In this document: positions 1-25,631 of the stretch, in pieces
How positions within the stretch are numbered: position 1 is the first letter of the stretch
Layout of the letters: the number at the start of each line of letters is the position of its first letter
NCBI GenBank assembly: GCA_036635835.1
Contig: JAVWPP010000001.1
Location: 68,890-132,889 of the forward strand
DNA: 64,000 nt
Direction of reading: 5' to 3'
Origin: Clostridia bacterium
GTDB taxonomy: Bacteria; Bacillota; Clostridia; TANB77; CAG-465
Program-made: the position numbers and the translations under genes
Notes under the pieces: generated by a model
What the model was told of the DNA's origin: nothing
The model's database searches: none
What the model saw: the letters and a program-made list of their open reading frames with translations, nothing else

Positions 1-378
1 AGCAATAGCTGGATTTATGAAGTTTGGATCAAAAAATGGTATTAAATTAAACACTAAATGATGTGGCATAGGGAAGTAAATTGCCGAATTTTGTCCCATA
101 CCTGAAAGTGAAAAAAGTAATCCTACAACTGACATAATTATATATACAAAAAATTGTAGTAAAGCTGTAAATGCTTTAACAAGTGGCTGCATAATTAATG
201 ATGCTCCACCTTCTAAAATATATGATATTCCGCTAACTTTATCGCCGTTTTCGTTTTCTATTACATTTTCTTCTATTACTTCAGATTCCGTTATTTGTGC
301 AGTTACACAGCTAGTTGTTCCAAATATAATTATTATTATCATAGATACAACTACGCATTTTTTCATTATTTTCTCCAT
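1..378 (-). CDS. Partial CDS (5' part in window, continues past left edge): N-terminal part of a paralog of the VirB6/TrbL-like polytopic membrane protein at 2093..4360
   Basis: My translation of the minus strand gives MEKIMKKCVVVSMIIIIIFGTTSCVTAQ..., then ...SAIYFPMPHHLVFNLIPFFDPNFINPAIA, which is near-identical to the motif EVYFPMPYHMVFNIIPFFDPNFINPAKA in the 755-aa protein. Signal-peptide-like N-terminus; ATG at 376-378. Confidence 0.6.
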   Translation of the reverse strand, partial: MEKIMKKCVVVSMIIIIIFGTTSCVTAQITESEVIEENVIENENGDKVSGISYILEGGASLIMQPLVKAFTALLQFFVYIIMSVVGLLFSLSGMGQNSAIYFPMPHHLVFNLIPFFDPNFINPAIA

Positions 379-683: not shown

Positions 684-1541
684 TTATACAACTTCATTAA
701 ATAAGAATTTGATTTCTATAGGCTCATCATTATTAGGCACTTTCACACTCTTTATTGAAAAGCCAGCCATATATCCATGAGATAATTGTCCAACTTTAAA
801 AGTTGCTAATGTATTTATTTCTTGGTTTGGCTGTATCACCACAGGTCTACCCATTGCAAATGAACTACTTGATACTATTTCTCCATCATTTAAATGATAT
901 CCATAAATGCATTCGTTTTTCGAATCTGAATTAAGTGTAACTGGCTGATCATTGTTGTTTCTTATTTTAAGTTTCATTTTATAAGTAGTAACACCAAAAT
1001 TAACATCAACTAATTCTACAGATATTTTATTACTTATGAATTTTTTATTTAAAGTTGCTTTGTAAATATAATCGTCAAAAGATATAGTGTAATTTCTTGG
1101 CGAAAGTTCTCGAATTATAATATATTCCTCAAGCAATTGATCTTTTGAAGTCATTCTAACTCTATAATATCTTTCATTGTTTATAATTCCATTAATGTAA
1201 TTTGACGGTACTAAATCTACTCCTAATATTTTTTTACCTTCTAATAAGGCTTTTAAATTGTCTTCTGTAATACCCTTTTCTGTAATATATGTATTTGTCA
1301 ATTTAGAGTATATTTCTTTAATGTTAGCCCTTTTTAACAGGTCTGCAATCTCTTTTAAATAACTGTTTAAGTATTTATTATTAGAATCCGTTGCAGATGT
1401 ATATTGGCCAAATTTTAATTCTTGTGGTTTTTCTTTTTTAGGTGCCCATATCATAACAAGTGCAATTATTAAAATTAGTACAACAACTGCAATTAGAATG
1501 CTAAATAAAGTTACCTCTTTTTTTATATCTTTTTCTTCCAT
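684..1541 (-). CDS. Bitopic membrane protein with N-terminal TM anchor and a ~250-aa extracytoplasmic domain, function unknown; candidate VirB8-like or accessory component of the T4SS-like cluster
   Basis: ORF of 285 aa. Hydrophobic segment FSILIAVVVLILIIALVMIW near the N-terminus. 8-nt gap to the upstream gene. No recognisable catalytic motif. Confidence 0.5.
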   Translation of the reverse strand: MEEKDIKKEVTLFSILIAVVVLILIIALVMIWAPKKEKPQELKFGQYTSATDSNNKYLNSYLKEIADLLKRANIKEIYSKLTNTYITEKGITEDNLKALLEGKKILGVDLVPSNYINGIINNERYYRVRMTSKDQLLEEYIIIRELSPRNYTISFDDYIYKATLNKKFISNKISVELVDVNFGVTTYKMKLKIRNNNDQPVTLNSDSKNECIYGYHLNDGEIVSSSSFAMGRPVVIQPNQEINTLATFKVGQLSHGYMAGFSIKSVKVPNNDEPIEIKFLFNEVV

Positions 1542-1549
1542 TACATCAC

Positions 1550-2077
1550 CTATATTTCTAAATAACTAATTTTAAATACTTTACTTCTTGTATCTAATTG
1601 GAATCCTATGAAGGTATTTTCGCTGATTGTTTTAATTTCAGCTAAATACACTTCAATTCCATTTTTATCTGCTATTTTATATAATTTAAATAAATTATTT
1701 TCATTAATATAAAAGTCATTGTCTTTTGTTGATTTAAAGTTTTTAGATATATATTCTTTTATTTTTTTCTTATAATCAAAGAAGGAGTGTTCTTTTTTAA
1801 GCGATTTTGTAAGTACTGAATATGTAGTTTTATCGTCCTTAGATAATAATCCTTCTATGTACATATTCATAACGGTTTCCGCTCTATTAAACTGCGTGTA
1901 ATCTTTGATAAGGTTTTCATCTTTAATATATGATTTGTAATCTTCAATTTTTATTTCACTTTTTGTGGTTTTTGCATTTAAACTTATCAAACTTGAGATT
2001 CCCCATAAAAGAATAACTGTAAGTCCTATAATGGCAATTATCATATTAATATTTTTCTTTTTAATATTTTCAAACAT
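1550..2077 (-). CDS. Small bitopic membrane protein (N-terminal TM), function unknown; part of the T4SS-like operon
   Basis: ORF of 175 aa. TM segment MIIAIIGLTVILLWGISSLISL. K/E-rich soluble domain. 15-nt gap to the VirB6-like gene. Confidence 0.5.
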   Translation of the reverse strand: MFENIKKKNINMIIAIIGLTVILLWGISSLISLNAKTTKSEIKIEDYKSYIKDENLIKDYTQFNRAETVMNMYIEGLLSKDDKTTYSVLTKSLKKEHSFFDYKKKIKEYISKNFKSTKDNDFYINENNLFKLYKIADKNGIEVYLAEIKTISENTFIGFQLDTRSKVFKISYLEI

Positions 2078-2092
2078 TAACTACCTCCATAA

Positions 2093-4360
2093 TTATTGTG
2101 AATCTTCTATATTATCTTTTTTTCTTTTATTATCTATTGTTGTTTTTACTGATTTTTCTCTATTTTGATTTCCTCCAATAGTTTTATTTGCACTACTCTC
2201 ATAACTTACTTGCTCGCTGATTTTTTGTTGTAAATGCTCTTCATAATTTATTTGAGGTTCTATCATTTTAAGCTGTGCTTCTCTTCCGACATTTTTTCCT
2301 ATAGTTTCTGCTATTTTGTCTCCGCCTGAAATTAATGCACCAGATATTGCTGACATATCATTAAGAGATCCAGATGCACCTCCACCCATAGCTAAACCTG
2401 CAACTACTGTTGCTGGTGACATGATTGCTGCAATTGTTTTTCCTGCTAATTGTTTTTCTTGTTCTCTAAGCTGCATTTCAAGTTCTTGTACAGACTTGCC
2501 TGGTAAACCAGAACTTGTCTGAGCTTGTTTTGGTAATTCTGCATTTGCCGCTGCTTGAATTCCTGTGCCTTTAGTTAATCTGTCTGGACTTGCTGCACCT
2601 TTAATTGTACTTGACATAGTTGAAGTTTGGCTCTGCACTGCTTGTAATATTTTATCTAACGCAAGTGCTATTCTATTTACTTCCGGTGAAGCTGTTCCTG
2701 TAGCTTTCAATGCTTGATTTACATCATTCATATCTACTTTTCCATCTCCAATACCAGGCTGCACTGTTGAAGTTTGCCTAGTAGCAGATGGACCTACATA
2801 TGTTAACAGATCCTTATTTGCAACATCTGTTGGTAATTTAGGAGGTGCTGCATTTGGCTGAACTTCTCTTGCTTTAGCTTTTTCAAGCTGAGATCTAGTA
2901 GATTTAATTCCTTTTCTACCAGCTGCCATACCCGTAAAGTTGTCTTTTATATTTTTTGTTGCACCAGCTGCAAGTGAGAAACCTGCAAAACCAAGTTTTC
3001 CTGCGTTTTGTAGACTTCCTGCTTTGGAATCTGGTACTCCAACGAAATCTTTAATTATTGCTTCTACTCTAGTTAATGAGGCTATTGCAACCACTTCTAT
3101 AATTGCTATAAGACCAGCAACTTTATCATGCTGCGCTGCATTATCTCCCATTTGTGTATCTAAAGTAGTAATGCCAGCTTGTTTTGCTAAACTGTTTATA
3201 AGTATCATAGTGAAAAACATTATAAATGCATGTATAGATTGCATAAATACTGCAATTCCAAACTGCGTTAACCATTTTTCAAAAAGTCCGCCTTTTTGTC
3301 CTAATACTTTTTTAATTGTATCTATTCCTATTACAAACGGGAATAGCATACCTAAAATAAGGCAGTAGAATAACCTTTTAATATATAGTATCGTTAGTGC
3401 AATAGTCTGTCCTATCATAACTGCAAGAATAATTGTAGCCATAAGTTCCCCAGATACCGACCTTTGCAAATACATTAAAAACATACCTTCAAATCCATAT
3501 GCTTTTTCTTGTACCGTTTCTACTTGGTTTAACCCTTCATTAATAAGAATTGCACCAAAAGATACTCCTAGTACCGGGCCTAGTAATACGGTCGTTGCTG
3601 CGCCTACTGCAGCGCCTGCGACCCATGCTCCTAGTTTCTCCATAAAGGATAGTTCTTTATCTTTTAATAAAGTTATAGACACTGGTATTTCTTCTTTTTG
3701 CGCGGCTTGATATAGATTAGAGACTATTTGCTCGTTTAGAAAAAATATACCTGCCATAAGGAAATGACCTACAAACAGCAGTATTATACCGGTTAGCCAA
3801 GTTGCTATTGCTGTTTTATATTGTGCTTTTTGCTGCGCTGAAACTGATATTGCAAGCTTTATTCCAATTATTAAAGCAATTACAACAAACAGAGTTGCAA
3901 CAATTGACACGCCTGTGTAATATAACGGGCTGATAGCTTTAGATACTATTTCTATTAAATTAAAGCTTCCTCCAGGAGGTGCTTTAGCTGGATTAATAAA
4001 ATTAGGATCAAAGAATGGTATGATATTAAACACCATATGATATGGCATTGGAAAATACACTTCCGTATTTTCAGTAACTCCCATCATTGAGAATACAACA
4101 GATATAACTGATACGACCATATAAATAATGAATCTTATTAGTAGTGAAAGCATATCTATTATAGCTCCTGAAATAAAGCCAAGCGAAGTAGCTTTTTTCA
4201 ATATTTGATTTAGTATTGTAGTTTTTTGACCATTCTCGCCATCAATTAAAGCTGTATTTAATTCCGTATGTGTTATTTCTGCAAAAATAGTGTTTGTAGC
4301 CACTAATACTAAAGTTACGATTAGAGATACTATTATAATTTTTTTAAGTACCTTTTTCAT
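2093..4360 (-). CDS. VirB6/TrbL-like polytopic membrane protein (compare Tn916 Orf15, ICEBs1 ConG, pCW3 TcpH) with a long hydrophilic low-complexity C-terminal extension
   Basis: 755 aa. Cleavable signal peptide (…TNTIFA-EIT), N-terminal extracytoplasmic region, then 6 or more TM helices in the middle. The C-terminal ~300 aa are A/G/Q/T/S-rich low complexity. Sits immediately downstream of the VirB4-like ATPase, as in Gram-positive conjugation loci. Confidence 0.6.
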   Translation of the reverse strand: MKKVLKKIIIVSLIVTLVLVATNTIFAEITHTELNTALIDGENGQKTTILNQILKKATSLGFISGAIIDMLSLLIRFIIYMVVSVISVVFSMMGVTENTEVYFPMPYHMVFNIIPFFDPNFINPAKAPPGGSFNLIEIVSKAISPLYYTGVSIVATLFVVIALIIGIKLAISVSAQQKAQYKTAIATWLTGIILLFVGHFLMAGIFFLNEQIVSNLYQAAQKEEIPVSITLLKDKELSFMEKLGAWVAGAAVGAATTVLLGPVLGVSFGAILINEGLNQVETVQEKAYGFEGMFLMYLQRSVSGELMATIILAVMIGQTIALTILYIKRLFYCLILGMLFPFVIGIDTIKKVLGQKGGLFEKWLTQFGIAVFMQSIHAFIMFFTMILINSLAKQAGITTLDTQMGDNAAQHDKVAGLIAIIEVVAIASLTRVEAIIKDFVGVPDSKAGSLQNAGKLGFAGFSLAAGATKNIKDNFTGMAAGRKGIKSTRSQLEKAKAREVQPNAAPPKLPTDVANKDLLTYVGPSATRQTSTVQPGIGDGKVDMNDVNQALKATGTASPEVNRIALALDKILQAVQSQTSTMSSTIKGAASPDRLTKGTGIQAAANAELPKQAQTSSGLPGKSVQELEMQLREQEKQLAGKTIAAIMSPATVVAGLAMGGGASGSLNDMSAISGALISGGDKIAETIGKNVGREAQLKMIEPQINYEEHLQQKISEQVSYESSANKTIGGNQNREKSVKTTIDNKRKKDNIEDSQ

Positions 4361-4371
4361 ATAATCTCCTT

Positions 4372-6360
4372 CTACTGTGCTGATTGAGCATTCATATTTG
4401 CGAGTTTAGATAAGTTTGTTTCAACAAATTCAAACTCTTTTTGTGTAGGTTGAATAGCAATAACTGCAGACTCTTGACCTATTTTTATTAAGCCTTCACC
4501 TCTAACACATGTTAATAAGAATTGTGATTCTCCATCACTTAGCTTAAATACTTCTTTTAAATATTGTATTTCAGATTTATCTTGTGCTAAAAATAATTTA
4601 ATTTCAGAAGATGTTAAAACTGCTTGAGCTTCTTTTTTCTCATAAAAGTCCTGGAACTTTTGAGAAACAACTGTTAATGATACATTTCTTTTTCTAGCAC
4701 GTCTAGCCATTGTATTTAAGAACTGTACAGCTTCTGGATAATCTAGTAACATCCACGCCTCATCTACTAGTACTCTCTTCTTTTTAGCTTTTGTTTTATC
4801 TTCACTGTTTTTCTTAACATATTTTTCCCATATCCAAGAAAGTAGGATTTGCTGAGCAAGTGGTCTTGCAAATTTTTCTTCTAGCTGAGATATATTAATA
4901 TTTATAAATGGTGAACCTTCTAAAAGTTCAAATGTAGATTGTCCATCAAAGTATGCCATTTGCCCATCTAGTTTTCTTACATACTGTTTCATAACTTTTA
5001 CAAGGTAACTGTAGTGATAACTGTATGCGCCATTTTGATTTTCTCCTGCTTTAACTAAAAGCGTATCATACCAAGAACTAATTGTTGGCATGTCTTTCTT
5101 TGTTAAGCCGATTCTATTGTTTATTCCACTTGCACTATTAGAATCTATGTATATACTATTTACGTCATTATTTATACCATGCCTTGCATATTCCTCAGCA
5201 ACTATTTCTGCTATTATTTGTTTTGTTAACTCATTAACTTCTGAGCTTCTTGTTGCTCCACGAGCCATTGTAAGTAGTGCTTGTGTAACGTCCTCTATTT
5301 TATTTTCTACATTAAGAACTAATTTATCTTTACCTGTAATTTCATCTTTAGTTGTTTCTGTCTCAATATCAAAAATATTTATTACAGTATTACTATTTGG
5401 GCTTAAATTGATGTTTATACCGCATAAAGCTTCTGCAACAACAACATACTCACCCTCGGCGTCTAGTACTAAATTTTCTATACCCATAAGTACAGATGAT
5501 CTAGCCATTATAGTTTTGATTGTAACTGATTTTCCAGAACCTGATTTTCCAAATATAATCATATTATAATTAGTTAATGAAGAATGGAAATTATCAAAAA
5601 GCAGTGGTAAACCTGTTTGTTTATTCATTCCTATAGGAACTCCAATTGGATGTCCAACTTCTGCTGCTACAAATGGGAAAACTGTTGACATTGAACCTCT
5701 ATCAAAAGTATGTTTTCTTGTTATTTTATTATTGTTAAGCGGTAAATTAGATTGAAGCGCTTCTTCTTGTATTGCCCATGCTGCTTTTAGAGTGATCATA
5801 TTTTTTGATGCTTCCATAGCAAGCATTTCTGAAGATTTATCTAACTCTTCTTTGTTATATGCAAAAAGAGTAGCAATAATAGTAGCTTCAAATAATTTAT
5901 TATATCCTGCTGCTATCTGATCTCTTAACTGTTCTGCTTCAGATTGTTTAGCAGATAGTACAGATTCTCTATTGATATCTCCTCTATCTCTTGCTACATA
6001 TCTTTCTGCTTGTAATTCAACAATGGTTTTTCCTAAATCTTTTTGAGATATAGTTTCAGATATTGGATTAATATATACGGATGTATTTATATCTCCAAAC
6101 TCATATATATCTGCTAAAAAATATGGGAATATTGCTTGTCTTGGTATGGTTGTTAAATAGAAAGTTCTAGCGTACCTAGATACTTTAGAAAATATCTCTA
6201 AATAATCAAAATGAGTAGCATCTATTCCTGATGGAGATATTAAGTCTTTTAATCCTGATTTGTTTTGGTCTAAAAAGCTCATTTCTTTTTCTCCAGCGCT
6301 TATGATTTCTTCTTCTGTTTTAACTGCTTCATTTTTTTGTTTTTTCTTACTTCCAAACAT
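4372..6360 (-). CDS. VirB4/TrsE/TcpF-like T4SS ATPase (DUF87/AAA-like family)
   Basis: 662 aa. Walker A IFGKSGSGKSV followed by the VirB4-type VLDAEGEY box. Walker B / DEAW motif RVLVDEAWMLLD. C-terminal SQKFQDF. Membrane-machine gene context. Confidence 0.8.
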   Translation of the reverse strand: MFGSKKKQKNEAVKTEEEIISAGEKEMSFLDQNKSGLKDLISPSGIDATHFDYLEIFSKVSRYARTFYLTTIPRQAIFPYFLADIYEFGDINTSVYINPISETISQKDLGKTIVELQAERYVARDRGDINRESVLSAKQSEAEQLRDQIAAGYNKLFEATIIATLFAYNKEELDKSSEMLAMEASKNMITLKAAWAIQEEALQSNLPLNNNKITRKHTFDRGSMSTVFPFVAAEVGHPIGVPIGMNKQTGLPLLFDNFHSSLTNYNMIIFGKSGSGKSVTIKTIMARSSVLMGIENLVLDAEGEYVVVAEALCGININLSPNSNTVINIFDIETETTKDEITGKDKLVLNVENKIEDVTQALLTMARGATRSSEVNELTKQIIAEIVAEEYARHGINNDVNSIYIDSNSASGINNRIGLTKKDMPTISSWYDTLLVKAGENQNGAYSYHYSYLVKVMKQYVRKLDGQMAYFDGQSTFELLEGSPFININISQLEEKFARPLAQQILLSWIWEKYVKKNSEDKTKAKKKRVLVDEAWMLLDYPEAVQFLNTMARRARKRNVSLTVVSQKFQDFYEKKEAQAVLTSSEIKLFLAQDKSEIQYLKEVFKLSDGESQFLLTCVRGEGLIKIGQESAVIAIQPTQKEFEFVETNLSKLANMNAQSAQ

Positions 6361-7995
6361 TTATATTCCTCCTTCGTTATTATTATTTGTTACAGCTTCT
6401 TTGTTTAAGTATGGGTTGTTATTGCGCATTTCTTCTAATTTTTGTTCTTTTGAAATCTCCGTACTTTGTACTGGCTGTTGTTTAATTACTTGTTCTAGTG
6501 GTCTTGCAACTTGTGGCTGAGTAGCTTGTGGCTGTTTAATTACCTGTTCTAACGGCCTTGCAACTTGCCCCTGCTGTGTAACTATCTGAGGCTGCTTAAC
6601 TACTTGTTCTAATGGTTTTGCAACTTGTGGCTCTTGTACTTGACTTGCTTGTGGAGCTTGAGGTGTATTTGGCTGCGCTGTTACTTGCTGAGCTTGTGGC
6701 GGCGTAGCTACTGGCCTTTGCACTTGTTGCTGCTGAACTACTTGTCTTTGCTGCATTGCTGCTGCTCTTTCGAATTCTTCTTGCCTTAACTTAGCCTGTC
6801 TTTCTCTTTCTTCTTCTTTTACTCTTTCTGCTCTATCTATGTGTTTTTTTATGATTATTTTAGTCAATGCATCTTTTGTTTCTAAGTCTATATCTGCTTC
6901 TGCAACATATTTCATAGCTAATTTATCTACATCTGCTTCTTCACTTGCTGCTTGCTCACCTGCTATAGGTAAAGAGCCTTTAGCTAGACCTTCTGTGATC
7001 ATTTGCTGTAATCTTTTTGAGCTTTCTTTTTGATATTCTTTAGAAAGAACTTCATCTTTTTTCTCTTCTATGTCTTTTGATGTTGAATATAGTCTATAGA
7101 ATTCTGATGATAATGCTTGTTTAACATCTATTATTTTTTCATCATCTCTGTTGTATGAAATATATAATAGTTCTGCTAGCTGGTTAGAATCTATTACTTC
7201 TCCTGAAACTGAGCAGGCTTGAAGTGCACTTATTATTGAGCGGGCTCTGGTGTAGAGCTCGGTATAGCACATTTGAGTTATTTCTTGTGGAGTGAATTTT
7301 TCTAAGTTTGTTATTTCGCTTTTATTATATGAAAAAATTATATAAAATTTTCTTTGAAGCATTTGCTTGTTACTACTCATTTTTTCTACATAATTTGTTA
7401 TATCATTTGCATACGAAAACATATTGCTATATTTTTGATAATTAAGCTGCGCATCAAACAAGTCTTTATGTGATGTTGTAGGCTCTTGTATTGCTTTTTT
7501 CAAATCTTGCTCATATGTTTTACATTGTAACTCTATATCATCTATTTTTTCTTTATATATTCTCATACTACTTCTTAAATCTACAGCTCTTGCTTGAACG
7601 TAAATTTGTATTGGACATCTTAATGTATTTAAAAAAGTTATAAAACCTTCTTCTACCGCCATTTGTTCTATTTCTGACATTAAATCATAATTTATACCTT
7701 TACACTGAACAACCATGGTATATACATTTCCACCTTTTTGTATTATCATATCATCTGAAATTTTATCAAATTCCATGAAATTAACTATATCAACCATTGG
7801 TACAGCTTTTTTAGCAAAAATCTTTTCTTCTTCTTTATCTACTTCGCCTTTTCCTGTTTCTTTTGTTTTAGGCGGTTTTTTATCTGTCATTATAAATACT
7901 ATTATTACAACTATTACAACTACTGCTCCTAGAATCCATATTAATTGATTTTCCATTTGACTTGTCTCCTTTTTTAGACATATGCTATTTAGCAT
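6361..7995 (-). CDS. Bitopic coiled-coil membrane protein, paralog of 8140..9375, with C-terminal Q/P-rich 17-aa tandem repeats; T4SS-like cluster component of unknown role
   Basis: 544 aa (true start possibly the internal MENQLIWILG). N-terminal TM. Conserved block YTMVVQCKGINYDLMSEIEQ and C-terminal ADIDLETKDALTKIIIKKHI shared with the 411-aa paralog. Its stop directly abuts the VirB4-like start codon. Confidence 0.55.
   Translation of the reverse strand: MLNSICLKKETSQMENQLIWILGAVVVIVVIIVFIMTDKKPPKTKETGKGEVDKEEEKIFAKKAVPMVDIVNFMEFDKISDDMIIQKGGNVYTMVVQCKGINYDLMSEIEQMAVEEGFITFLNTLRCPIQIYVQARAVDLRSSMRIYKEKIDDIELQCKTYEQDLKKAIQEPTTSHKDLFDAQLNYQKYSNMFSYANDITNYVEKMSSNKQMLQRKFYIIFSYNKSEITNLEKFTPQEITQMCYTELYTRARSIISALQACSVSGEVIDSNQLAELLYISYNRDDEKIIDVKQALSSEFYRLYSTSKDIEEKKDEVLSKEYQKESSKRLQQMITEGLAKGSLPIAGEQAASEEADVDKLAMKYVAEADIDLETKDALTKIIIKKHIDRAERVKEEERERQAKLRQEEFERAAAMQQRQVVQQQQVQRPVATPPQAQQVTAQPNTPQAPQASQVQEPQVAKPLEQVVKQPQIVTQQGQVARPLEQVIKQPQATQPQVARPLEQVIKQQPVQSTEISKEQKLEEMRNNNPYLNKEAVTNNNNEGGI
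6420..6665. repeat. Imperfect ~51-54-nt tandem repeats (about 3 units) encoding QVARPLEQVIKQPQ-type peptide repeats
   Basis: DNA units ...cttgttctagtggtcttgcaacttgtggctg... recur three times. The protein shows QVAKPLEQVVKQPQ / QVARPLEQVIKQPQ / QVARPLEQVIKQQP. Confidence 0.7.
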
Positions 7996-8139
7996 TAGAA
8001 ATTATTTATATTTTTTTATATTTTCATTACATACTATTATACTAAAATCTTATCATAAGTAGATTTTCTTTGCAAGAACTTTTAGTGATTTTCTACATGT
8101 TTTGCATATTAAAAAAAACATAAAAAAGGCAACCCAATA

Positions 8140-9375
8140 TTAAAATATTGAATTGCTTTTTATTGCAGGTGTAACAATACCTGTTTTACTATCAACCTTT
8201 GTTGTTTGATTTATGCTAGTATCTAGCTCAACTCCAGCTGCTTTTATTTTTTCTATATGTTTTTTAACAATTAATTTAGTTAATGCATCTTTTGTTTCTA
8301 GATCTATGTCTGCACCAGCTATAATTTTAACTGCCATTTTATCTATTTTCTCATCTCGCTCTACATCTTCGTTTACTTCTGGTTTAAGCCTGCCTTTAGC
8401 TTCATCTTGAGCTCTTTTTATTTTTTGCTTTTCTGCTTTTTCGCTTAAATATTCATTACGTAAAAACTCATTCTTCTGATTCATGCTGTCTCTAGTTGAT
8501 GAATATACATTGTAAAATCCAGAATCTACGGCTTGTTTTATTTCTATGATCTTATCGTCATAAGTATTTAGTGAAACATACAATAAGTCTACTAATTCAT
8601 TACTTGTAAGAACCTTTGAAACTACTTGACATGCATTTAATGCATCTATAAGTTCGCAAGCTTTTTTATATAATACGGAATACGCATATTCTGCAATCTT
8701 TTTGGCTTTTACTTTTTCATCTTGTGGTATTTCAGACTTATCAAAAGAAAATATAATGTAAAACTTTCTTTGAAGCATTCTTTTATTAAATGTAACTTTT
8801 TCAGTATATCTAGTTATATCATCTGCATATTGATACATATTATTTGTTTGCTGTATTTTCATTTGTGCATCATATATTTTTTTAGAATCTATCTCCATAC
8901 TTTGCATAAGCACTTGATATTCTCTCTCCGCATCTTCGCATTTAATTCTTAAGCTTTCTACTTTATTTTTATACATTTCTAAATTTTCTTTTAATTCTAT
9001 TGTTCTAGATTGAACATAAATTTGAATTGGGTAATCTATTAATTCCATACAATCAACGAAACCTTTTTCTACTTTTAATTGTTCTATTTCGGACATCAAA
9101 TCATAATTTATGCCTTTACACTGAATTATCATAGTATATCTACCATCTGAGTTTTGTACAATCATATTATCTAAAATTCTATCAAATTCTACAAACTTAG
9201 AAAGATTAACAAGTTCAGGAGGCTTAGCTTTTTTCTTAGGTTCATTGCTCTCAGGCATATTTGGATTTTTTTTATTTGCGGCTTTCTTTGCAGATTGTTT
9301 ATCTGTAACCATAAGAAATATAAATCCACCTACAGAAAGAACCAAAACTAATATTGTTATTAATTCAAAATTCAT
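8140..9375 (-). CDS. Bitopic coiled-coil membrane protein, paralog of 6361..7995
   Basis: 411 aa. N-terminal TM ITILVLVLSVGGFIFLMV. Shares the YTMIIQCKGINYDLMSEIEQ and ADIDLETKDALTKLIVKKHI blocks with the 544-aa protein. Its start ATG overlaps the stop of the upstream 125-aa gene (TAATG). Confidence 0.55.
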   Translation of the reverse strand: MNFELITILVLVLSVGGFIFLMVTDKQSAKKAANKKNPNMPESNEPKKKAKPPELVNLSKFVEFDRILDNMIVQNSDGRYTMIIQCKGINYDLMSEIEQLKVEKGFVDCMELIDYPIQIYVQSRTIELKENLEMYKNKVESLRIKCEDAEREYQVLMQSMEIDSKKIYDAQMKIQQTNNMYQYADDITRYTEKVTFNKRMLQRKFYIIFSFDKSEIPQDEKVKAKKIAEYAYSVLYKKACELIDALNACQVVSKVLTSNELVDLLYVSLNTYDDKIIEIKQAVDSGFYNVYSSTRDSMNQKNEFLRNEYLSEKAEKQKIKRAQDEAKGRLKPEVNEDVERDEKIDKMAVKIIAGADIDLETKDALTKLIVKKHIEKIKAAGVELDTSINQTTKVDSKTGIVTPAIKSNSIF

Positions 9376-19328: not shown

Positions 19329-20690
19329 CTAATATTTTGCTTCTACGGGCTCTACACCTTTATATAAATTTTTAAACTTCGTAAACTGTCCATACCAACC
19401 AAGTTCAATAGTTCCAGTAGATCCAGATCTGTTTTTAGCTATAATAACTTCCGCTAAATTTTTATTTTCCGGCACTTCTTTGTAGTAACTTTCTCTATGT
19501 ATAAACAAAACTTGATCCGCATCTTGTTCTATAGAACCAGATTCTCTTATATCACTTAGAGTTGGTCTATGCTCATCTCTTTTTTCAGAACAACGGTTTA
19601 ACTGTGTTAGTGCAATAATAGGTATTTTTAATTCTTTAGCTAGTATCTTTAAAGATCTACTTATTTCAGATATTTCTTGTTGTCTACCTTCAGATTTACC
19701 ATTTCCATTCATAAGCTGAATATAGTCAATAACTATAAGTCCTATGTTTTTTTCTAATTTTGCTTTTCTAGCCTGTGCTCTTAAAGTTGTTGAAGTTAAT
19801 TCTGGTGAATCTGCTATGTAGATAGGAAGTTCAGATATTACACCTGTAGCTTTTGAAATTTTAGCCCAATCTGCATCCTCTAACTTGCCGTTTTTTATTT
19901 TACCTGCATCTATTTCAGAATATGAAGATATGAATCTATTTATTATTTCTTTAGTTGCCATTTCTAGGCTAAATATAAGTACAGGAACATTTTGCGTCAT
20001 TGCAACATGAAGTGCTATATTTAAAGCAAATGCTGTTTTACCCATAGCTGGCCTTGCTCCTACTATAACAAGATTCGATGAATTTAAACCTGAAGTTTTT
20101 TCATCTACATCTATAAATCCAGATTCTAGTCCAGATACATTTCCTTCTCTATTGCATAGCTCTTCTAAATTTTCTAAACTTAACTTTAATCCTTCTTTCA
20201 TGTCTACATATCCAGTAGATTTTCTAGATTGTAATAGATCAAAAATCTTTTTTTCAGCTTGTTCTACTACAGAATCTGTTTCTGTTGTTTGTAAACTACA
20301 AAGAGAATGTATATCATTACTTGCTTTGATTAATTTTCTAAGAGTTGCTTTTTCTTCTACAATTTTTACGTACTCATTTATGTTAGATGTAGTTGGTAAA
20401 GCATCTACAAGTGATGTTATATATTCTATTCCACCTACTTTATCTAAACAATTATTTAGTTTTAATTGTTCTTTTAAAGTTATTGGATCTATTTTTCTAC
20501 CTAATGAATATAAATCCATCATAGCTTTATAAACTTGCCTATGATCTTCTCTATAGAAATCATCATCTTTTAATTTTTCTGTTGCTGCAACTATTGCATC
20601 GCTATCTATAATCATAGCTCCTAATACTGCTTTTTCTGCTTCTAAATCTGCTGGTATATTATTTACGTTATTTTCCATATCTATTCTCAC
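19329..20690 (-). CDS. dnaB: Replicative DNA helicase (DnaB family; called DnaC in Firmicutes)
   Basis: Walker A GARPAMGKT; conserved rplI-dnaB linkage. Confidence 0.9.
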   Translation of the reverse strand: MRIDMENNVNNIPADLEAEKAVLGAMIIDSDAIVAATEKLKDDDFYREDHRQVYKAMMDLYSLGRKIDPITLKEQLKLNNCLDKVGGIEYITSLVDALPTTSNINEYVKIVEEKATLRKLIKASNDIHSLCSLQTTETDSVVEQAEKKIFDLLQSRKSTGYVDMKEGLKLSLENLEELCNREGNVSGLESGFIDVDEKTSGLNSSNLVIVGARPAMGKTAFALNIALHVAMTQNVPVLIFSLEMATKEIINRFISSYSEIDAGKIKNGKLEDADWAKISKATGVISELPIYIADSPELTSTTLRAQARKAKLEKNIGLIVIDYIQLMNGNGKSEGRQQEISEISRSLKILAKELKIPIIALTQLNRCSEKRDEHRPTLSDIRESGSIEQDADQVLFIHRESYYKEVPENKNLAEVIIAKNRSGSTGTIELGWYGQFTKFKNLYKGVEPVEAKY

Positions 20691-20698
20691 CCTTTTTA

Positions 20699-21148
20699 CT
20701 ACTTTGCTTCTATAACACTTATTTTAACATTTGCAACTATACCTTCGTATAATTTTGCTTCTGCTGTATAAACTCCTAATGATTTTATTGGTACTTTTAC
20801 TGTTACTTTCTTTTTATCTATTTTTATTTGATGTGTTTCTTTAATTCTTTCTGCTATTTCTTTATCTGTAATGCTTCCAAAAAGTCTTCCTTCTTTTCCA
20901 ACTTTGATTTTAAACTCTAAAGTTTCTTTTTCTAGAATGCTTTTTACTTCGTTTGCTTTTTTAATTTCTTGCTCTTTTTTATATTTTTCTGATTCGACTT
21001 TAGACTTTGCTTCTGAAACAGACTTGTTATCTGCAAGTTTAGCCATTTTTCTTGGTATCAAATAATTTCTTGCATATCCCTCGCTTGCTTCGATAACTTG
21101 TAGTTTTTTTCCTAATCCTTTTATATCTTGCAATAAGACTATCTTCAT
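20699..21148 (-). CDS. rplI: 50S ribosomal protein L9
   Basis: MKIVLLQDIKGLGKKLQVIEASEGYARNYLIP. Confidence 0.95.
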   Translation of the reverse strand: MKIVLLQDIKGLGKKLQVIEASEGYARNYLIPRKMAKLADNKSVSEAKSKVESEKYKKEQEIKKANEVKSILEKETLEFKIKVGKEGRLFGSITDKEIAERIKETHQIKIDKKKVTVKVPIKSLGVYTAEAKLYEGIVANVKISVIEAK

Positions 21149-21163
21149 AAAATCTCTTCCCTT

Positions 21164-23146
21164 CTAATTATCTTTACTGTAATACGTATCTATGGCTTGA
21201 ATAAGCATTTCTTTTGCTTCTTCTAGCTCTACTCCTGCAAGCTGCGCGCCTGCAAATGTTAAATGACCTCCACCACCTAGGCGTTCTAATATCATTTGAA
21301 CGTTTATATCTCCCATTGATCTGCCAGATATCATTACTACCCCGTCTATTTTACAAAGAACAAACGAAGCTAAAACTTCACTTATAGATAGTAATTCATC
21401 TGCAGCTTGGGCAGCTATTACCGCTAAATTATCCATTGTTTTATCGCATATTGAAATTGCTATTTCTTTTCTTATAAATTCGGCTTTTTTAACGATTTCA
21501 ACTTTTGCTGTATATGTTTCAAAATTATTTTGGAATATTTGTTTTACTTCTGCTATGTCTAGTCCAACTCTTTTTAAATACGCAGCAGCTTCAAATGTTC
21601 TAACTCCAGTTTTAAATGTGAAATTTTTTGTATCTACTAAAATTCCTGCATACATAGCCTCTGCTTCGCTTTGCGAAAGTTCAATATCTGGTATGTACAT
21701 AAGAAGCTCTGTTACTAGCTCTGATGTTGATGAAGCGTATACTTCATGGTATGAAAGTATTGTATCTTCTATAAACTCAGGACCTCTTCTATGGTGATCT
21801 ACCAATATAACTTTTTCAAATTCTTCTAGCACTTCTGGAACTGCAAGATAACTCTTTTTATGCGTATCTACAATAATTAAAAGTGAATTGTTGAAATCTT
21901 GTTTCTTTATATCATCTTTTGTTATAAATACGTTTTCATATTTTTTATCTTTTTTTATTCTTTCCATTATCATTTGACTACTAGAATTGTATTTTGCATC
22001 TACAATAATATGTATAGGTGTATTTAATTTTTCTGCTATTTTACAAAATCCTATTGCAGCTCCAATGCAGTCTATGTCTGTGTTTTTATGTCCCATAACA
22101 TAAACGCTATCTGCTTTTTCAATAAGTTCTTTTGTTGCTTGAGCTATGGTTCTAGACCTAACTTTACTCATTTTTTCTACTTTTATAGCGGCATCTCCGT
22201 AAAAACCGTATTTGCCGTTTTCCTTAACTACTGTTTGATCTCCGCCTCTTCCAAGTGCTATATCTAAAGTTGCAACTGTAGATTTGTATCTTTCATACAA
22301 TGATTCCTCGTCGTTAGATATTCCTATGCTTAGAGATACCGGAACTTTTGTTAAATCTGTTATGTTTTTAATTTTTGATAATATTTCAAACTGCTTTTTT
22401 TTCAAAGTTTCTAATTCTTTTTTTGTTAATAATATCATATATCTATCTTTTTCAAATTTAGCAACAACTGCTCCTATGTTTTTGCCCCATTTTCTTATTT
22501 CTTTGTCTATTCTTGAAATTACATTAACTCTATCCATTTCGTCTAAGCCTTGAAGTACTTCTTCGAAATTATCTACAACTACAAGTCCAAGACATAATTT
22601 ATTGTCTACGATAGATGTTTTCATATTTTTTTCTTCTGTTTTGTCTATGAAACAAAGTAGCTTGAAGTTTTCATTTTCTATTAGGAAAGTGTTTTGGTAG
22701 ACTTCGTACTCGCTTTCATATAGATTAATTGTATAATTATCGTTTTTTGTCTTGCTATCTATTTGTAGCAAAACTTTCTCTAAATCTTCTGGAGTTACTA
22801 TAAACGAGAATTTTTTGTTGCTCCATATCATTTCATTTTTTTTATTTAAAATCATAATTGGTAGTTCCATGCGGTCAAATAATTTTTTCATCATTTTATT
22901 TGCGCTTTTTTCAATTTCTCCAATTCTAGCTGTTCTATTGAAAAATTCGTTTATTGTTATTGCAGCAATAAAGCCAATTACAATTAGCGATAAAGGTACT
23001 GAAATAAACCAACCTTTTGGGCTAACAAACAATATATATATAAATAATATAACTATTATAACCATATATATATATTGAGAAGTATATGCATCTATATTTA
23101 TTTTTTTTCTGAATTTTCTTTTATCATTTGATTTTTTTTCATTCAT
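21164..23146 (-). CDS. gdpP: c-di-AMP phosphodiesterase GdpP/YybT-like (2 TM, PAS-like, degenerate GGDEF, DHH/DHHA1)
   Basis: DHH motif VDHHR. 660 aa. Conserved yybT-rplI-dnaB gene order. Confidence 0.8.
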   Translation of the reverse strand: MNEKKSNDKRKFRKKINIDAYTSQYIYMVIIVILFIYILFVSPKGWFISVPLSLIVIGFIAAITINEFFNRTARIGEIEKSANKMMKKLFDRMELPIMILNKKNEMIWSNKKFSFIVTPEDLEKVLLQIDSKTKNDNYTINLYESEYEVYQNTFLIENENFKLLCFIDKTEEKNMKTSIVDNKLCLGLVVVDNFEEVLQGLDEMDRVNVISRIDKEIRKWGKNIGAVVAKFEKDRYMILLTKKELETLKKKQFEILSKIKNITDLTKVPVSLSIGISNDEESLYERYKSTVATLDIALGRGGDQTVVKENGKYGFYGDAAIKVEKMSKVRSRTIAQATKELIEKADSVYVMGHKNTDIDCIGAAIGFCKIAEKLNTPIHIIVDAKYNSSSQMIMERIKKDKKYENVFITKDDIKKQDFNNSLLIIVDTHKKSYLAVPEVLEEFEKVILVDHHRRGPEFIEDTILSYHEVYASSTSELVTELLMYIPDIELSQSEAEAMYAGILVDTKNFTFKTGVRTFEAAAYLKRVGLDIAEVKQIFQNNFETYTAKVEIVKKAEFIRKEIAISICDKTMDNLAVIAAQAADELLSISEVLASFVLCKIDGVVMISGRSMGDINVQMILERLGGGGHLTFAGAQLAGVELEEAKEMLIQAIDTYYSKDN

Positions 23147-23392
23147 AATTCTTTTCCTTTTTTCTATGCTTACATTTTACTATTTATATTTCTGTTTGTC
23201 AAGGAGTACAATGTTTTTTTATGTTACATAAGTACCTATTTTTCGCTAGTTTTTAGACTTTCCTTATTTAAAAAATTATTTCTTTATTTTTTTAAAATTT
23301 ATATCTACATTTATTTGATTTTAAGCATAAAAAAATTGAAATATACATAATTATCTCTAATCATCTTTATTTCAATTATTTTGACTATTTAA

Positions 23393-23746
23393 TTATATAA
23401 TTGATTGTGCTGCTGTAACAATGAATCCAACTAATGGTTCTGCTAAGAACACTATAATTGCACCTACAATTAGTATAACTGTTTGTTTTTTGATATCTGC
23501 TTTTGAATCTGCAGATGCAAACATATATCTAAGTCCTGCAAATATAATTGCTGCGAATGCAAGTACTTGTATTACAGTTGTTATTGTACTCCATACGTTT
23601 CCCATTGTTGCTCCAACACCTTCTGCAGCTGTTCCTCCGTTTGGTAATGATGTATCAATTCCTGTTCCTGCTGCAAATACAGTTGTTAAACATAATATCA
23701 ACATTAAAACTATAGGTAAAACCTTAACTAATTTTTTCATATTCAA
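23393..23746 (-). CDS. Secreted pilin-like small protein (VirB2/TrbC-like topology), copy 1 of a near-identical tandem pair
   Basis: Signal peptide ...TTVFA-AGT. Motif AGLRYMFASADSKADIKKQ. More than 95% nucleotide identity to 23890..24237. Confidence 0.55.
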   Translation of the reverse strand: MNMKKLVKVLPIVLMLILCLTTVFAAGTGIDTSLPNGGTAAEGVGATMGNVWSTITTVIQVLAFAAIIFAGLRYMFASADSKADIKKQTVILIVGAIIVFLAEPLVGFIVTAAQSII

Positions 23747-23889
23747 GCCTCCTTTGCTTATACATGTATTTAGTATATCAATACAAATTTAATTAGTCAA
23801 TACTATATTTGTAGTTTTGCTATATTTGTTTTTTAATTTTGACAAAAAAAATGTGATGAATAAATTCACCACATTATTATAATAAATTA

Positions 23890-24237
23890 TTATATAATTG
23901 ATTCTGCTGCTGTAACTATGAAACCAACTAATGGTTCTGCTAAGAACACTATAATTGCACCGACAATTAGGATAACTGTTTGTTTTTTGATATCTGCTTT
24001 TGAATCTGCAGATGCAAACATATATCTAAGTCCTGCAAATATAATTGCTGCGAATGCAAGTACTTGTATTACAGTTGTTATTGTACTCCATACGTTTCCC
24101 ATTGTTGCTCCAACGCCTTCTGCTGCTGTTCCTCCTGCTGGTAATGATGTATCAATTCCTGTTCCAGCTGCAAATACAGTTGTTAAACATAATATTAACA
24201 TTAAAACTACTGGTAAAACTTTAATAAATTTTTTCAT
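23890..24237 (-). CDS. Secreted pilin-like small protein, copy 2 of the tandem pair
   Basis: Differs from copy 1 by only a few residues (N/A at position 34, Q/E near the C-terminus, and the signal-peptide start). Confidence 0.55.
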   Translation of the reverse strand: MKKFIKVLPVVLMLILCLTTVFAAGTGIDTSLPAGGTAAEGVGATMGNVWSTITTVIQVLAFAAIIFAGLRYMFASADSKADIKKQTVILIVGAIIVFLAEPLVGFIVTAAESII

Positions 24238-24401
24238 AAAAATTCCTCCTAATCTATTCTATATTTAAATTATATCACAAAACTCTATAAAATGTCAACC
24301 ATTTTTATTTATTCTATCTACTTTTGCCTATTTATATACTCTTATGGCTATCTAATTGACTTTTTTTTATTTATTTATATTATTAAATTAAGGAGGCTAT
24401 A

Positions 24402-24938
24402 ATGAAAATAATAATTTATAAAATATTTTTATCTTTGCTTGTAGCAATTATAATAATTACTGGTTTATTAACTAAAACAAATACTGATTCTAGTAAATCT
24501 ACTGGTTTTATTTGGCCAAGCGATGTCCATAAAATCTCTTCTCCCTACGGAAAAAGAAATTTATTTACGGTGCATTTTCATAATGGTATTGATATACCTG
24601 CAAGGCAAGGCAGTAATATATATGCAATTTCAGATGGCGTTGTTGAATTTACAAATTTTAAAGGCTCTTTCGGATATACAATTGTGCTTAAACATGATGG
24701 CGAATATAAGAGTATGTACTGCCACGTTGATCCTAATTTTTTAGTTATAGAAGGGCAGTTTGTTAAGCAAGGTGATATAATTGCTAAAATAGGACCTGCT
24801 AGACTGCCAAACTCCGCTACAAAATATTATATTTTTAACGGATATAAGTCTAATGGCATGACTACTGGGCCGCATCTTCATTTTTCTACTATTTTTAAAG
24901 GAAAATATGTGAATCCACAGTCTTTAACGTATAAATAA
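24402..24938 (+). CDS. M23/LytM-family peptidoglycan endopeptidase with N-terminal membrane anchor
   Basis: HFHNGIDI (HxxxD) and GPHLHFS (HxH) zinc-ligand motifs; RBS AGGAGG. Confidence 0.8.
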   Translation: MKIIIYKIFLSLLVAIIIITGLLTKTNTDSSKSTGFIWPSDVHKISSPYGKRNLFTVHFHNGIDIPARQGSNIYAISDGVVEFTNFKGSFGYTIVLKHDGEYKSMYCHVDPNFLVIEGQFVKQGDIIAKIGPARLPNSATKYYIFNGYKSNGMTTGPHLHFSTIFKGKYVNPQSLTYK

Positions 24939-24971
24939 AGCATCAAGATTTCTCCTGATGCCATTTATTAT

Positions 24972-25631
24972 CTATTCTTGTTCTGCTTGTTCTTCTTTTT
25001 CTTCTTTATCTAATAATTCTAATTTAGAAACTGAAACTTCATATGCAAGGTTCTTTACAACAGTACCATCTTCATATTTTTTTTCATATTCTCTACTTTG
25101 AACTCTTCCTTCGATTTTAATATTTGTTCCTACAGGCAAGTTTTCGCAGAATTTAGCGTTTCTTCCCCACATTATACAAGGTATATAATCTGATTTATTA
25201 TATGCTCTATTTACAGCTATTAAAACATCTGCAATTTCTCTACCTAGAGGTGTTTTTCTGTATACTGGTTTTTTACAAACAAAACCATTTAATAAAGCTT
25301 CATTTTTAGTTTTTGCTTCTTCTTCTACCTCAATAGTTCTTAGCTCTTTGATAAATATAGATAATACTAATTTACTTTTTTCTTCACGATACTTATTATA
25401 TGATCTAAACTGACCTTCAATTTCAATAAGTAATCCCGGTTTAAACGTTGCTAAATCTATAAGTCTTTCTGAAACTATAACTGGTATTTTATCATCAGCT
25501 CCACTAAGTCTACTTACACTTATATCAAATATGTAAAACTTTTCACCATATACTTCATGACTTATTTGAAGTTCTGAAGCTATAGTACCTCCTATTTTTA
25601 CAATATTATTTTCACTATAATTATTTAACAC
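24972..25631 (-). CDS. Hypothetical protein with two OB-fold-like halves, the second SSB/PriB-like; acidic C-terminal tail
   Basis: 219 aa. Weak SSB-like pattern in the C-terminal half; EEKEEQAEQE tail. Not a canonical SSB. Confidence 0.3.
   Translation of the reverse strand: MLNNYSENNIVKIGGTIASELQISHEVYGEKFYIFDISVSRLSGADDKIPVIVSERLIDLATFKPGLLIEIEGQFRSYNKYREEKSKLVLSIFIKELRTIEVEEEAKTKNEALLNGFVCKKPVYRKTPLGREIADVLIAVNRAYNKSDYIPCIMWGRNAKFCENLPVGTNIKIEGRVQSREYEKKYEDGTVVKNLAYEVSVSKLELLDKEEKEEQAEQE

Follow-up and report, generated by a model that had tools for sequence, protein, structure and literature searches.

Arrays of VirB2-like pilin genes are known from the chromosomal type IV secretion systems (T4SSs) of Patescibacteria/Saccharibacteria (Quinonero-Coronel et al. 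2025, PMC12102498; Wang et al. 2023, as cited in that paper). Apart from this group, VirB2 is not found in Gram-positive T4SSs according to a December 2025 review (PMC12857230) and, likewise, PMC12102498, and no description of a Clostridial or TANB77 chromosomal T4SS bearing VirB2 was found in the literature. For the hydrolases of Gram-positive T4SSs, a PrgK-type layout has been described (PMC12857230). In this study, we analyzed two almost identical pilin-like genes, here called pilA and pilB, and the adjacent gene for a small M23/LytM metallopeptidase (small M23). They lie in a stretch of 64,000 nucleotides, referred to as the window, from a metagenome-assembled Clostridia bacterium (GCA_036635835.1, contig JAVWPP010000001.1), and a matching locus is present in GCA_036667975.1, GCA_036659155.1 and GCA_036636615.1. 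An earlier note made from the window alone had described these genes as a satellite of a T4SS-like main cluster and had proposed the peptidase for the role of a wall hydrolase that this cluster appeared to lack. The main result of our analysis is corrective: the locus is probably the split-off head of the cluster with a converted or duplicated pilin pair, that is, a rearranged cluster piece rather than a satellite, and the small M23 is probably not the missing hydrolase, there being no gap for it to fill.

The cluster shares with the patescibacterial T4SSs the monoderm host, the chromosomal location, the set of VirB4, TrsD-like, PrgI/VirB3 and VirB6 proteins together with tandem VirB2-like pilins, the lack of a relaxase in the cluster and the presence of peptidase- or lysozyme-type hydrolases downstream of virB4. 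It differs in its host, which here belongs to a spore-forming Clostridia lineage, in the split of the array from the ATPase by 12 kb, and in the similarity of the pilins, as patescibacterial arrays average 25% identity with a maximum of 54% (PMC12102498), whereas the pair described here reaches 96%. With at least two VirB2-like genes, a chromosomal location and no relaxase nearby, the gene content corresponds to that of a Patescibacteria-type monoderm T4SS. A relaxase and a coupling-protein domain were looked for in the 20 kb examined, and neither was present. Judged by its gene content, the cluster as a whole resembles a type of T4SS so far described only in Patescibacteria, chromosomal, without a relaxase and with an array of VirB2 genes. 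The presence of the sporulation genes SpoIIP, SpoVA and CotF marks the hosts as genuine Firmicutes. The surrounding system is of greater interest than the pair itself: a VirB4-centred cluster with tandem VirB2-like pilins that is apparently inherited vertically in very many gut Clostridia. If the pilins form a pilus, VirB2 in monoderm T4SSs would no longer be restricted to Patescibacteria, and a Firmicutes source of the patescibacterial system would become possible.

The pilin pair and its place in the cluster

Gene callers on three assemblies assign 115 amino acids (aa) to both pilA and pilB. Of the two lengths given in the earlier note, 115 and 117 aa, the second corresponds to the longest open reading frame of pilA (23393..23746), which begins at an upstream TTG; the ATG at 23740 lies 7 nt downstream of an AGGAGG and is the more plausible start. 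Both products pass the gathering threshold of PF04956 (TrbC/VirB2; 27.9 bits, scores in Table 1). For PF18895 (T4SS_pilin, cutoff 26.6), the single pilins stay below the cutoff with scores of 22 and the double pilin of the main cluster exceeds it with 31.1. The pilin protein already bears the NCBI label "TrbC/VirB2 family", and 386 homologues of pilB were found. The pilB product carries a predicted Sec signal peptide (...TTVFA, followed by AGTG after the predicted cleavage site) and then two hydrophobic helices joined by a RYMFASADSKADIKKQ loop. In an AlphaFold2 model (pLDDT 72), helices span residues 3-25, 40-77 and 83-114. Model and motif thus agree with the pilin-family architecture of a signal peptide and a hydrophobic two-helix hairpin with a short charged loop. 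In this family the GxRYMFASADxKADIKK motif of the loop is nearly invariant across 40 homologues and represents a family-wide signature. The pilins adjacent to rseP are indeed homologues of the pair, as noted earlier, but they carry close variants of this motif and not the identical string. Foldseek did not match the pilin model to any PDB entry at E below 7, and neither a pilin nor a solved VirB2 was returned when PDB sequences were searched with a profile; both are weak negatives, small helical hairpins being ill-suited to such searches. No additional pilin-like or small-M23 genes were found elsewhere in the window. Taken together, the sequence features support the assignment of pilA and pilB as VirB2/TrbC-type pilin homologues of a T4SS-like system.

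In order to place the locus among its relatives, we scanned the small-M23 family alignment against one genome per GTDB species, which matched 393 species, and mapped the window proteins onto the 80 loci that were kept. In related gut Clostridia, the cluster forms one contiguous unit at more than 30 loci, and there the pilins are encoded directly with VirB3, VirB4 and VirB6 homologues. Among the loci found through M23, 21 species genomes carry the M23 gene divergently beside one to four pilin genes, followed in order by the double pilin, the PrgI/VirB3-like, TrsD/TraC-like, VirB4-like and VirB6-like genes and the 285-aa gene; the VirB4-like proteins of these loci are 73-78% identical to that of the window, and SSB and PGI flank M23 on its other side. 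In the nearest relatives (L092 and L094, VirB4 identity 83-84%), the order is SpoVA, DivIVA, SpoIIP, PGI, SSB, a 300-aa gene, M23 on the opposite strand, one pilin, the double pilin, PrgI, a 528-aa gene, VirB4, VirB6, a 178-aa gene, a 286-aa gene and a large hydrolase. Two abundant gut species, one of them represented by locus L099, match this layout, and pilB is the positional orthologue of the lone M23-proximal pilin in L092 and L094.

In the window, the pilin pair lies 12.45 kb from the nearest gene of the main cluster, whose longest open reading frame ends at 10939. The separation of 13 kb reported earlier is therefore essentially confirmed, but its interpretation is not. A co-oriented 12.2-kb housekeeping block parts the pair from the remaining cluster in this species only and is not there in the related contiguous loci. 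As the contiguous arrangement is the general state in relatives, the supposed satellite rather appears to be the ancestral cluster head, cut off by this block.

We propose that the locus was originally the promoter-proximal end of a T4SS-like cluster that many gut Clostridia carry on the chromosome and inherit vertically. By parsimony, the 12.2-kb block would have come to lie inside the pilin array in this species, so that M23, SSB and PGI retained the first pilin and its conserved consensus promoter as neighbours, while the remaining cluster landed beside rseP. The first pilin is now present as two almost identical, separately promoted genes, which would have arisen either through duplication followed by conversion confined to the coding sequence (CDS) or very recently, and the outcome would be roughly twice the amount of the presumed major pilus subunit. 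The vertical component of this proposal is based on the conservation of VirB4. Its family comprises more than 6,900 protein clusters, of which the top 120 all show at least 76% identity, and VirB4 is 67-84% identical across very many lineages (L010, L092, L098-L179). Within the related loci, VirB4 reaches 73-84% identity compared to about 60% for the neighbouring PGI, which points to vertical inheritance under strong constraint rather than to a mobile element.

Origin and maintenance of the two copies

Alignment of the two copies, a check suggested in the earlier note, revealed 17 differences in 348 nt of CDS (95.1% identity) and unrelated flanks. The differences fall in 15 codons, ten of them synonymous and five changing an amino acid (5/115 residues). 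Three of these five changes lie in the predicted signal peptide, and the mature proteins differ only at N34A and Q112E (2/92). The copies form a direct repeat with a start-to-start spacing of 497 bp. This spacing had been taken as the length of two units more than 95% identical, but the similarity covers only the 348-bp CDS and a few bases flanking the ribosome-binding site: no alignment is left past the ribosome-binding site at one end or from about 15 nt after the stop codon at the other. Neither the 5' flanks nor the 3' flanks align locally with a score above that of shuffled sequence, and the spacer at 23741-23889 is unrelated to the upstream region of pilB. Tandem Repeats Finder reported no tandem array at the pair, which is consistent with similarity limited to the CDS. 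In addition, the differences are clustered, leaving a central run of 143 nt with none (P about 0.013 under uniform placement, based on simulations).

In the pilin tree, pilA and pilB are sisters, followed by the rseP-adjacent pilin (51% identity) and then by the single M23-proximal pilin of the nearest relatives. According to this tree, the three single pilins of the genome look like lineage-specific copies of one ancestral gene. Across 70 other loci with at least two pilin-like genes, the identity within a locus has a maximum of 69% and a median of 41%; measured against these values and the patescibacterial maximum, the 96% pair is exceptional. These results support a recent, lineage-specific duplication or gene conversion as the source of the near-identity, in line with what the earlier note had assumed. 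Between the two processes, the CDS-limited similarity, the unrelated flanks and the mosaic of differences favour gene conversion over plain recent duplication, and we regard it as reasonably likely that CDS-confined conversion between older tandem paralogues has homogenized the pair.

A simple and very recent tandem duplication, kept for dosage and without any conversion, would account for the sister relationship and the 95% nucleotide identity as well as for the single pilin at the corresponding position in the nearest relatives. Duplication also has occurred elsewhere in the cluster of this lineage, which holds two TrsD/TraC-like paralogues (44% identical) where relatives have one, and two VirB6-like paralogues of 736 and 755 aa (51% identical). 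Such an event, however, should have copied the flanks too, yet their similarity is at shuffle level against a CDS difference of 4.9%, and the clustered differences around a 143-nt identical core are not expected from it either. We therefore consider simple duplication rather unlikely.

An assembly artefact was considered as well. Two short-read contigs of the same species (L004 and L005) end at or beside the pair, at or inside the near-identical repeat of 350 bp, as a repeat would cause. By contrast, three independent assemblies hold both copies, each with its unique flanks and with identical copy-specific differences. On account of these concordant assemblies the artefact was rejected, and its probability is practically negligible. 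With regard to copy number among strains, which the earlier note had proposed to check, both copies are thus present in three assemblies; as the copy-specific A and B differences match there, the pair is real and older than the divergence of the strains.

Promoters and terminators described here are consensus matches. Upstream of pilB, a sigma-70-type promoter matches the consensus in full, and the orthologous pilin gene of both nearest relatives, L092 and L094, is preceded by the same TTGACA and extended -10 arrangement. A terminator-like hairpin with a T-run directly follows the pilB stop, and a separate, weaker promoter-like site precedes pilA (Table 1). From these signals, pilB looks like its own transcription unit. 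The predominance of synonymous changes (10/15 differing codons) is consistent with purifying selection on both copies and, together with a promoter-like site of its own for each gene, indicates that both are maintained. A higher subunit dosage is a reasonable inference from the two promoter-like sites, and a doubled supply of the presumed major pilus subunit would be the simplest reading. The active dosage amplification proposed earlier can be retained in this conditional form.

A major pilin gene amplified in tandem at the start of a T4SS locus is likewise known from Bartonella and Anaplasma. As summarized in PMC12102498, the virB2 paralogues of these genera have diversified, presumably to vary antigens or host range. 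In the present pair, the difference of only two residues between the mature proteins points to dosage or homogenization rather than to variation. As the near-identical pair with its consensus promoter marks the likely major subunit, it offers a practical target for antibodies, expression work and cryo-electron tomography.

The small M23 peptidase and the dedicated hydrolase

None of the in-window cluster proteins contains a hydrolase domain, and the absence of a cell-wall hydrolase stated in the earlier note is true only inside the window. The apparent lack is a window-edge artefact. At its left edge, the window cuts through the second VirB6-like paralogue, and the next gene on the same contig (both genes on L096:11164-17148), two genes past the 285-aa gene and co-directional with the T4SS genes, encodes a 1245-aa protein with the domains Peptidase_M23 (599-704), Peptidase_C39_2 (915-1057) and Glucosaminidase (1104-1236). 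Large hydrolases occupy the matching position in the nearest relatives, in the two abundant gut species and in a sister clade of clusters with VirB4 identities of 67-71%. In the nearest relatives they comprise roughly 1200 aa with M23 and SLT domains, to which NlpC/P60 is added in one contig. Those of the sister clade combine lysozyme or glucosaminidase with NlpC/P60 and are without an M23 domain.

The 1245-aa protein shares with PrgK of pCF10 the combination of an M23/LytM domain, a papain-like peptidase and a glucosaminidase/muramidase-type domain, as well as the co-directional position at the end of the T4SS genes. Lying in the operon and co-directional with virB4 and virB6 is the arrangement of a VirB1-type enzyme, and it is that of the 1245-aa gene; the small M23 is encoded on the opposite strand in every locus. 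Going by domains and position, the VirB1-type wall-opening role is covered by the predicted PrgK-like protein. As this large dedicated hydrolase sits just outside the window, the small M23 is probably not the missing wall-cutter of the machine. The proposal that it fills this role is not upheld, given that the genome and every relative examined have a PrgK-like hydrolase of their own.

The description of the small M23 as a membrane-anchored M23/LytM protein on the opposite strand beside the pair was confirmed, with a PF01551 match at E=1e-24. It has an N-terminal hydrophobic anchor or signal sequence, an intact HxxxD motif (H60/D64) and, behind a 17-residue insert, an intact HxH motif (H158/H160). 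The residues H60, D64, H108, H158 and H160 are invariant in 24 members of the small-M23 family, and solved active M23 enzymes among the PDB sequence matches can be aligned with the protein along the entire domain. From its sequence we infer, with moderate confidence, an active membrane-tethered LytM-type endopeptidase. PF01551 is the sole domain, and no glycan-cleaving or CHAP/NlpC-P60 domain is present. We compared the protein with the Gram-positive VirB1-type hydrolases PrgK (pCF10), TraG (pIP501), Orf14 (Tn916), CwlT and TcpG; it differs from them in having only a LytM domain and in being encoded outside the operon on the opposite strand. A derivation from the M23 domain of the 1245-aa hydrolase was rejected, as both share only 21% identity (E=0.05).

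The combination of an N-terminal anchor with a LytM domain also is the architecture of the sporulation protein SpoIIQ, and the neighbourhood with SpoIIP, DivIVA, SpoVAC/D/E and CotF could be taken as decisive for such an identity; a weak match to the NCBIfam SpoIIQ model (E=3e-6) points in the same direction. The score of this match, however, is 27 bits against a cutoff of 250 and lies below those of MepM, ShyA and NlpD-type models, the 27 PDB sequence matches obtained at E up to 0.001 include no structure under the name SpoIIQ, and a sister clade of M23 proteins adjoins efp and not sporulation genes. Neither spoIID nor spoIIID was found among the neighbours of the small M23. A SpoIIQ identity was rejected on model score and synteny and must be regarded as very improbable.

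Whether the small M23 travels with the T4SS was assessed in an unbiased sample, a VirB4-anchored scan of metagenome contigs in which loci with at least 7 kb upstream were counted. In the closer clade (VirB4 identity of at least 73%), M23 is present in 12/13 loci and SSB in exactly those 12, the exception (L111) having neither. Beside the sister-clade clusters (67-71%), M23 and SSB are both absent (0/22 each), although pilins, PrgI, TrsD, VirB4, VirB6 and the large hydrolase are all present. The co-occurrence of M23 and pilins, which the earlier note had proposed to look for, holds for one clade and fails for the other, and the small M23 does not accompany the T4SS across lineages as a VirB1-type component would. 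In L099, two unrelated inserted genes part M23 from the pilins, and M23 remains beside SSB. A neighbour-joining tree places the T4SS/SSB-adjacent M23 proteins, including that of the window, in one clade (A). In about 40 species, members of the sister M23 clade (B) have efp, a 160-aa gene and an Xaa-Pro peptidase gene as neighbours, and T4SS genes are absent within 10 kb. Among the 80 kept loci, clade A and clade B are never represented by the same genome, which hints at one small M23 per genome, and there was no overlap in shared flanking genes between genomes with clade-B M23 and the sister-clade T4SS loci. The adjacency of the small M23 is clade-specific synteny, which may or may not reflect function.

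It could be argued that the enzyme is nevertheless a T4SS-associated hydrolase, for example cleaving peptide cross-links locally to give a VirB2-type pilus or channel passage through the thick wall, alongside the large PrgK-like enzyme. In support of this, the divergent position next to the first pilin is kept in 21/21 clade-A genomes and in 12/13 closer-clade loci of the VirB4-anchored scan, the catalytic motifs are invariant across the family, and a membrane anchor is found in known Gram-positive VirB1-type enzymes as well. Its best solved-structure match is annotated as 'M23 peptidase domain protein' (PDB 3slu); we take this entry to be an M23 enzyme of Neisseria with a reported effect on type IV pili. 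On the other hand, the premise of a missing hydrolase is false, the gene lies outside the operon on the opposite strand, and the protein has no glycosidase or CHAP/NlpC domain. It is absent beside 22/22 sister-clade clusters and in L111, its occurrence follows that of SSB and not that of the T4SS genes, and the sister clade of its family resides in the housekeeping context of efp. A T4SS-associated hydrolase thus seems unlikely. With moderate confidence, we regard a general role in the cell wall as most likely for the small M23, which would be a neighbour conserved within the lineage and at most accessory to the T4SS.

Several points weigh against our overall interpretation of a split-off cluster head with a converted pair and an independent peptidase. 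The clade-A small M23 is never seen without an adjacent T4SS cluster, and the short intergenic region shared by M23 and the pilin could allow co-regulation, so that a T4SS- or pilus-linked role is possible. The stretches examined span 20 kb, and in genomes of the sister M23 clade or of the sister VirB4 clade the respective partner component may be present elsewhere. The choice of conversion over duplication is based on the dissimilarity of the flanks and one mosaic statistic (P about 0.013), and no conversion events were seen among the three strains. Finally, the pilin assignment is based on Pfam scores barely over the threshold, predicted topology and gene context.

Possible relation to DNA transport and further features of the locus

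The archaeal Ced/Ted systems and the ComB system of Helicobacter are domesticated conjugation machineries for DNA import (PMC9905601 and PMC13395361). The cluster shares with them the chromosomal location and relaxase-less VirB4/VirB6 components and, with Ced/Ted, the VirB2-type pilins. In the closer clade, an SSB-family gene is found directly upstream of the cluster; it is absent beside the sister clade. This likeness is one of gene content only. It is conceivable, although quite improbable, that these spore-forming gut Clostridia build a VirB2-type pilus on a domesticated, relaxase-less T4SS, for whose passage through the thick wall the small M23 would act as a dedicated gate-opener, with the pilin pair as an active dosage adaptation, the machine possibly being a device for DNA import or exchange like Ced/Ted or ComB. 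The SSB gene (PRK05813) is co-oriented with the cluster and directly upstream of it in every M23-bearing locus of the closer clade (L010, L092, L098, L099 and others), which might hint at DNA handling.

Table 1. Coordinates of the analyzed features; positions refer to the window unless a locus is given.
Feature	Position	Strand	Remarks
pilB	23890..24237	-	M23-proximal VirB2/TrbC-type pilin gene, 115 aa; open reading frame and PF04956, 30.7 bits
pilA	23393..23740	-	second pilin copy, 115 aa; PF04956, 32.4 bits
Small M23/LytM metallopeptidase	24402..24938	+	178 aa; PF01551; divergent from pilB
Two-OB-fold SSB-family gene	24972..25631	-	NCBIfam PRK05813; invariably found beside the small M23 within the closer VirB4 clade
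pilB consensus sigma-70-type promoter	24269..24298	-	TTGACA, 18 nt, TG-n-TATAAT; 12/12 matches
Terminator-like hairpin and T-run after pilB stop	23850..23875	-	
pilA promoter-like site	23772..23800	-	TTGACT, 17 nt, TATACT, with TG
Terminator-like hairpin between convergent M23 and SSB genes	24939..24962	-	
Co-oriented housekeeping block, 12.2 kb	10967..23146	-	rseP, cdsA, frr, pyrH, tsf, rpsB, ftsH, tilS, dnaB, rplI, gdpP
Main T4SS-like cluster, in-window part	684..10843	-	
Pilin	10508-10843	-	111 aa
Double pilin	9818-10480	-	
PrgI/VirB3-like	9375-9752	-	
TrsD/TraC-like paralogue 1	8140-9375	-	
TrsD/TraC-like paralogue 2	6361-7995	-	
VirB4-like ATPase	4372-6360	-	
VirB6-like	2093-4360	-	755 aa
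175-aa gene	1550-2077	-	
285-aa gene	684-1541	-	
Second VirB6-like paralogue	1..378	-	736 aa; N-terminus only, runs off the window
PrgK-like hydrolase	L096:13411-17148		1245 aa; next gene after the 736-aa VirB6-like gene, about 3 kb past the left edge of the window

The TraC-like/TrsD-type assignment in the main cluster was taken from the precomputed Pfam PF26593, and the second of these paralogues has a long, repetitive C-terminal region rich in Q and P (roughly 6361-6900). A strong promoter-like site for gdpP is located at 23202-23174 on the minus strand, and the AT-rich spacer between pilA and gdpP contains a 23-nt unit repeated 2.2 times (77% matches) at 23267-23316.

Additional genes were observed at related loci. 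A TraX-family gene (PF05857) lies between PGI and SSB in some relatives (L010:11278-12105; L098:3711-4478) and is absent from the window; we take this family to be that of the F-pilin acetylase. The genes between M23 and the pilins in L099 (L099:3132-6204) are an AAA_14/DUF4143 ATPase gene and a 490-aa gene. The sister-clade loci L125, L134 and L155 have conserved surroundings of another kind, with two open reading frames of roughly 425-450 aa upstream and two genes of 410-450 aa downstream, all without annotation.

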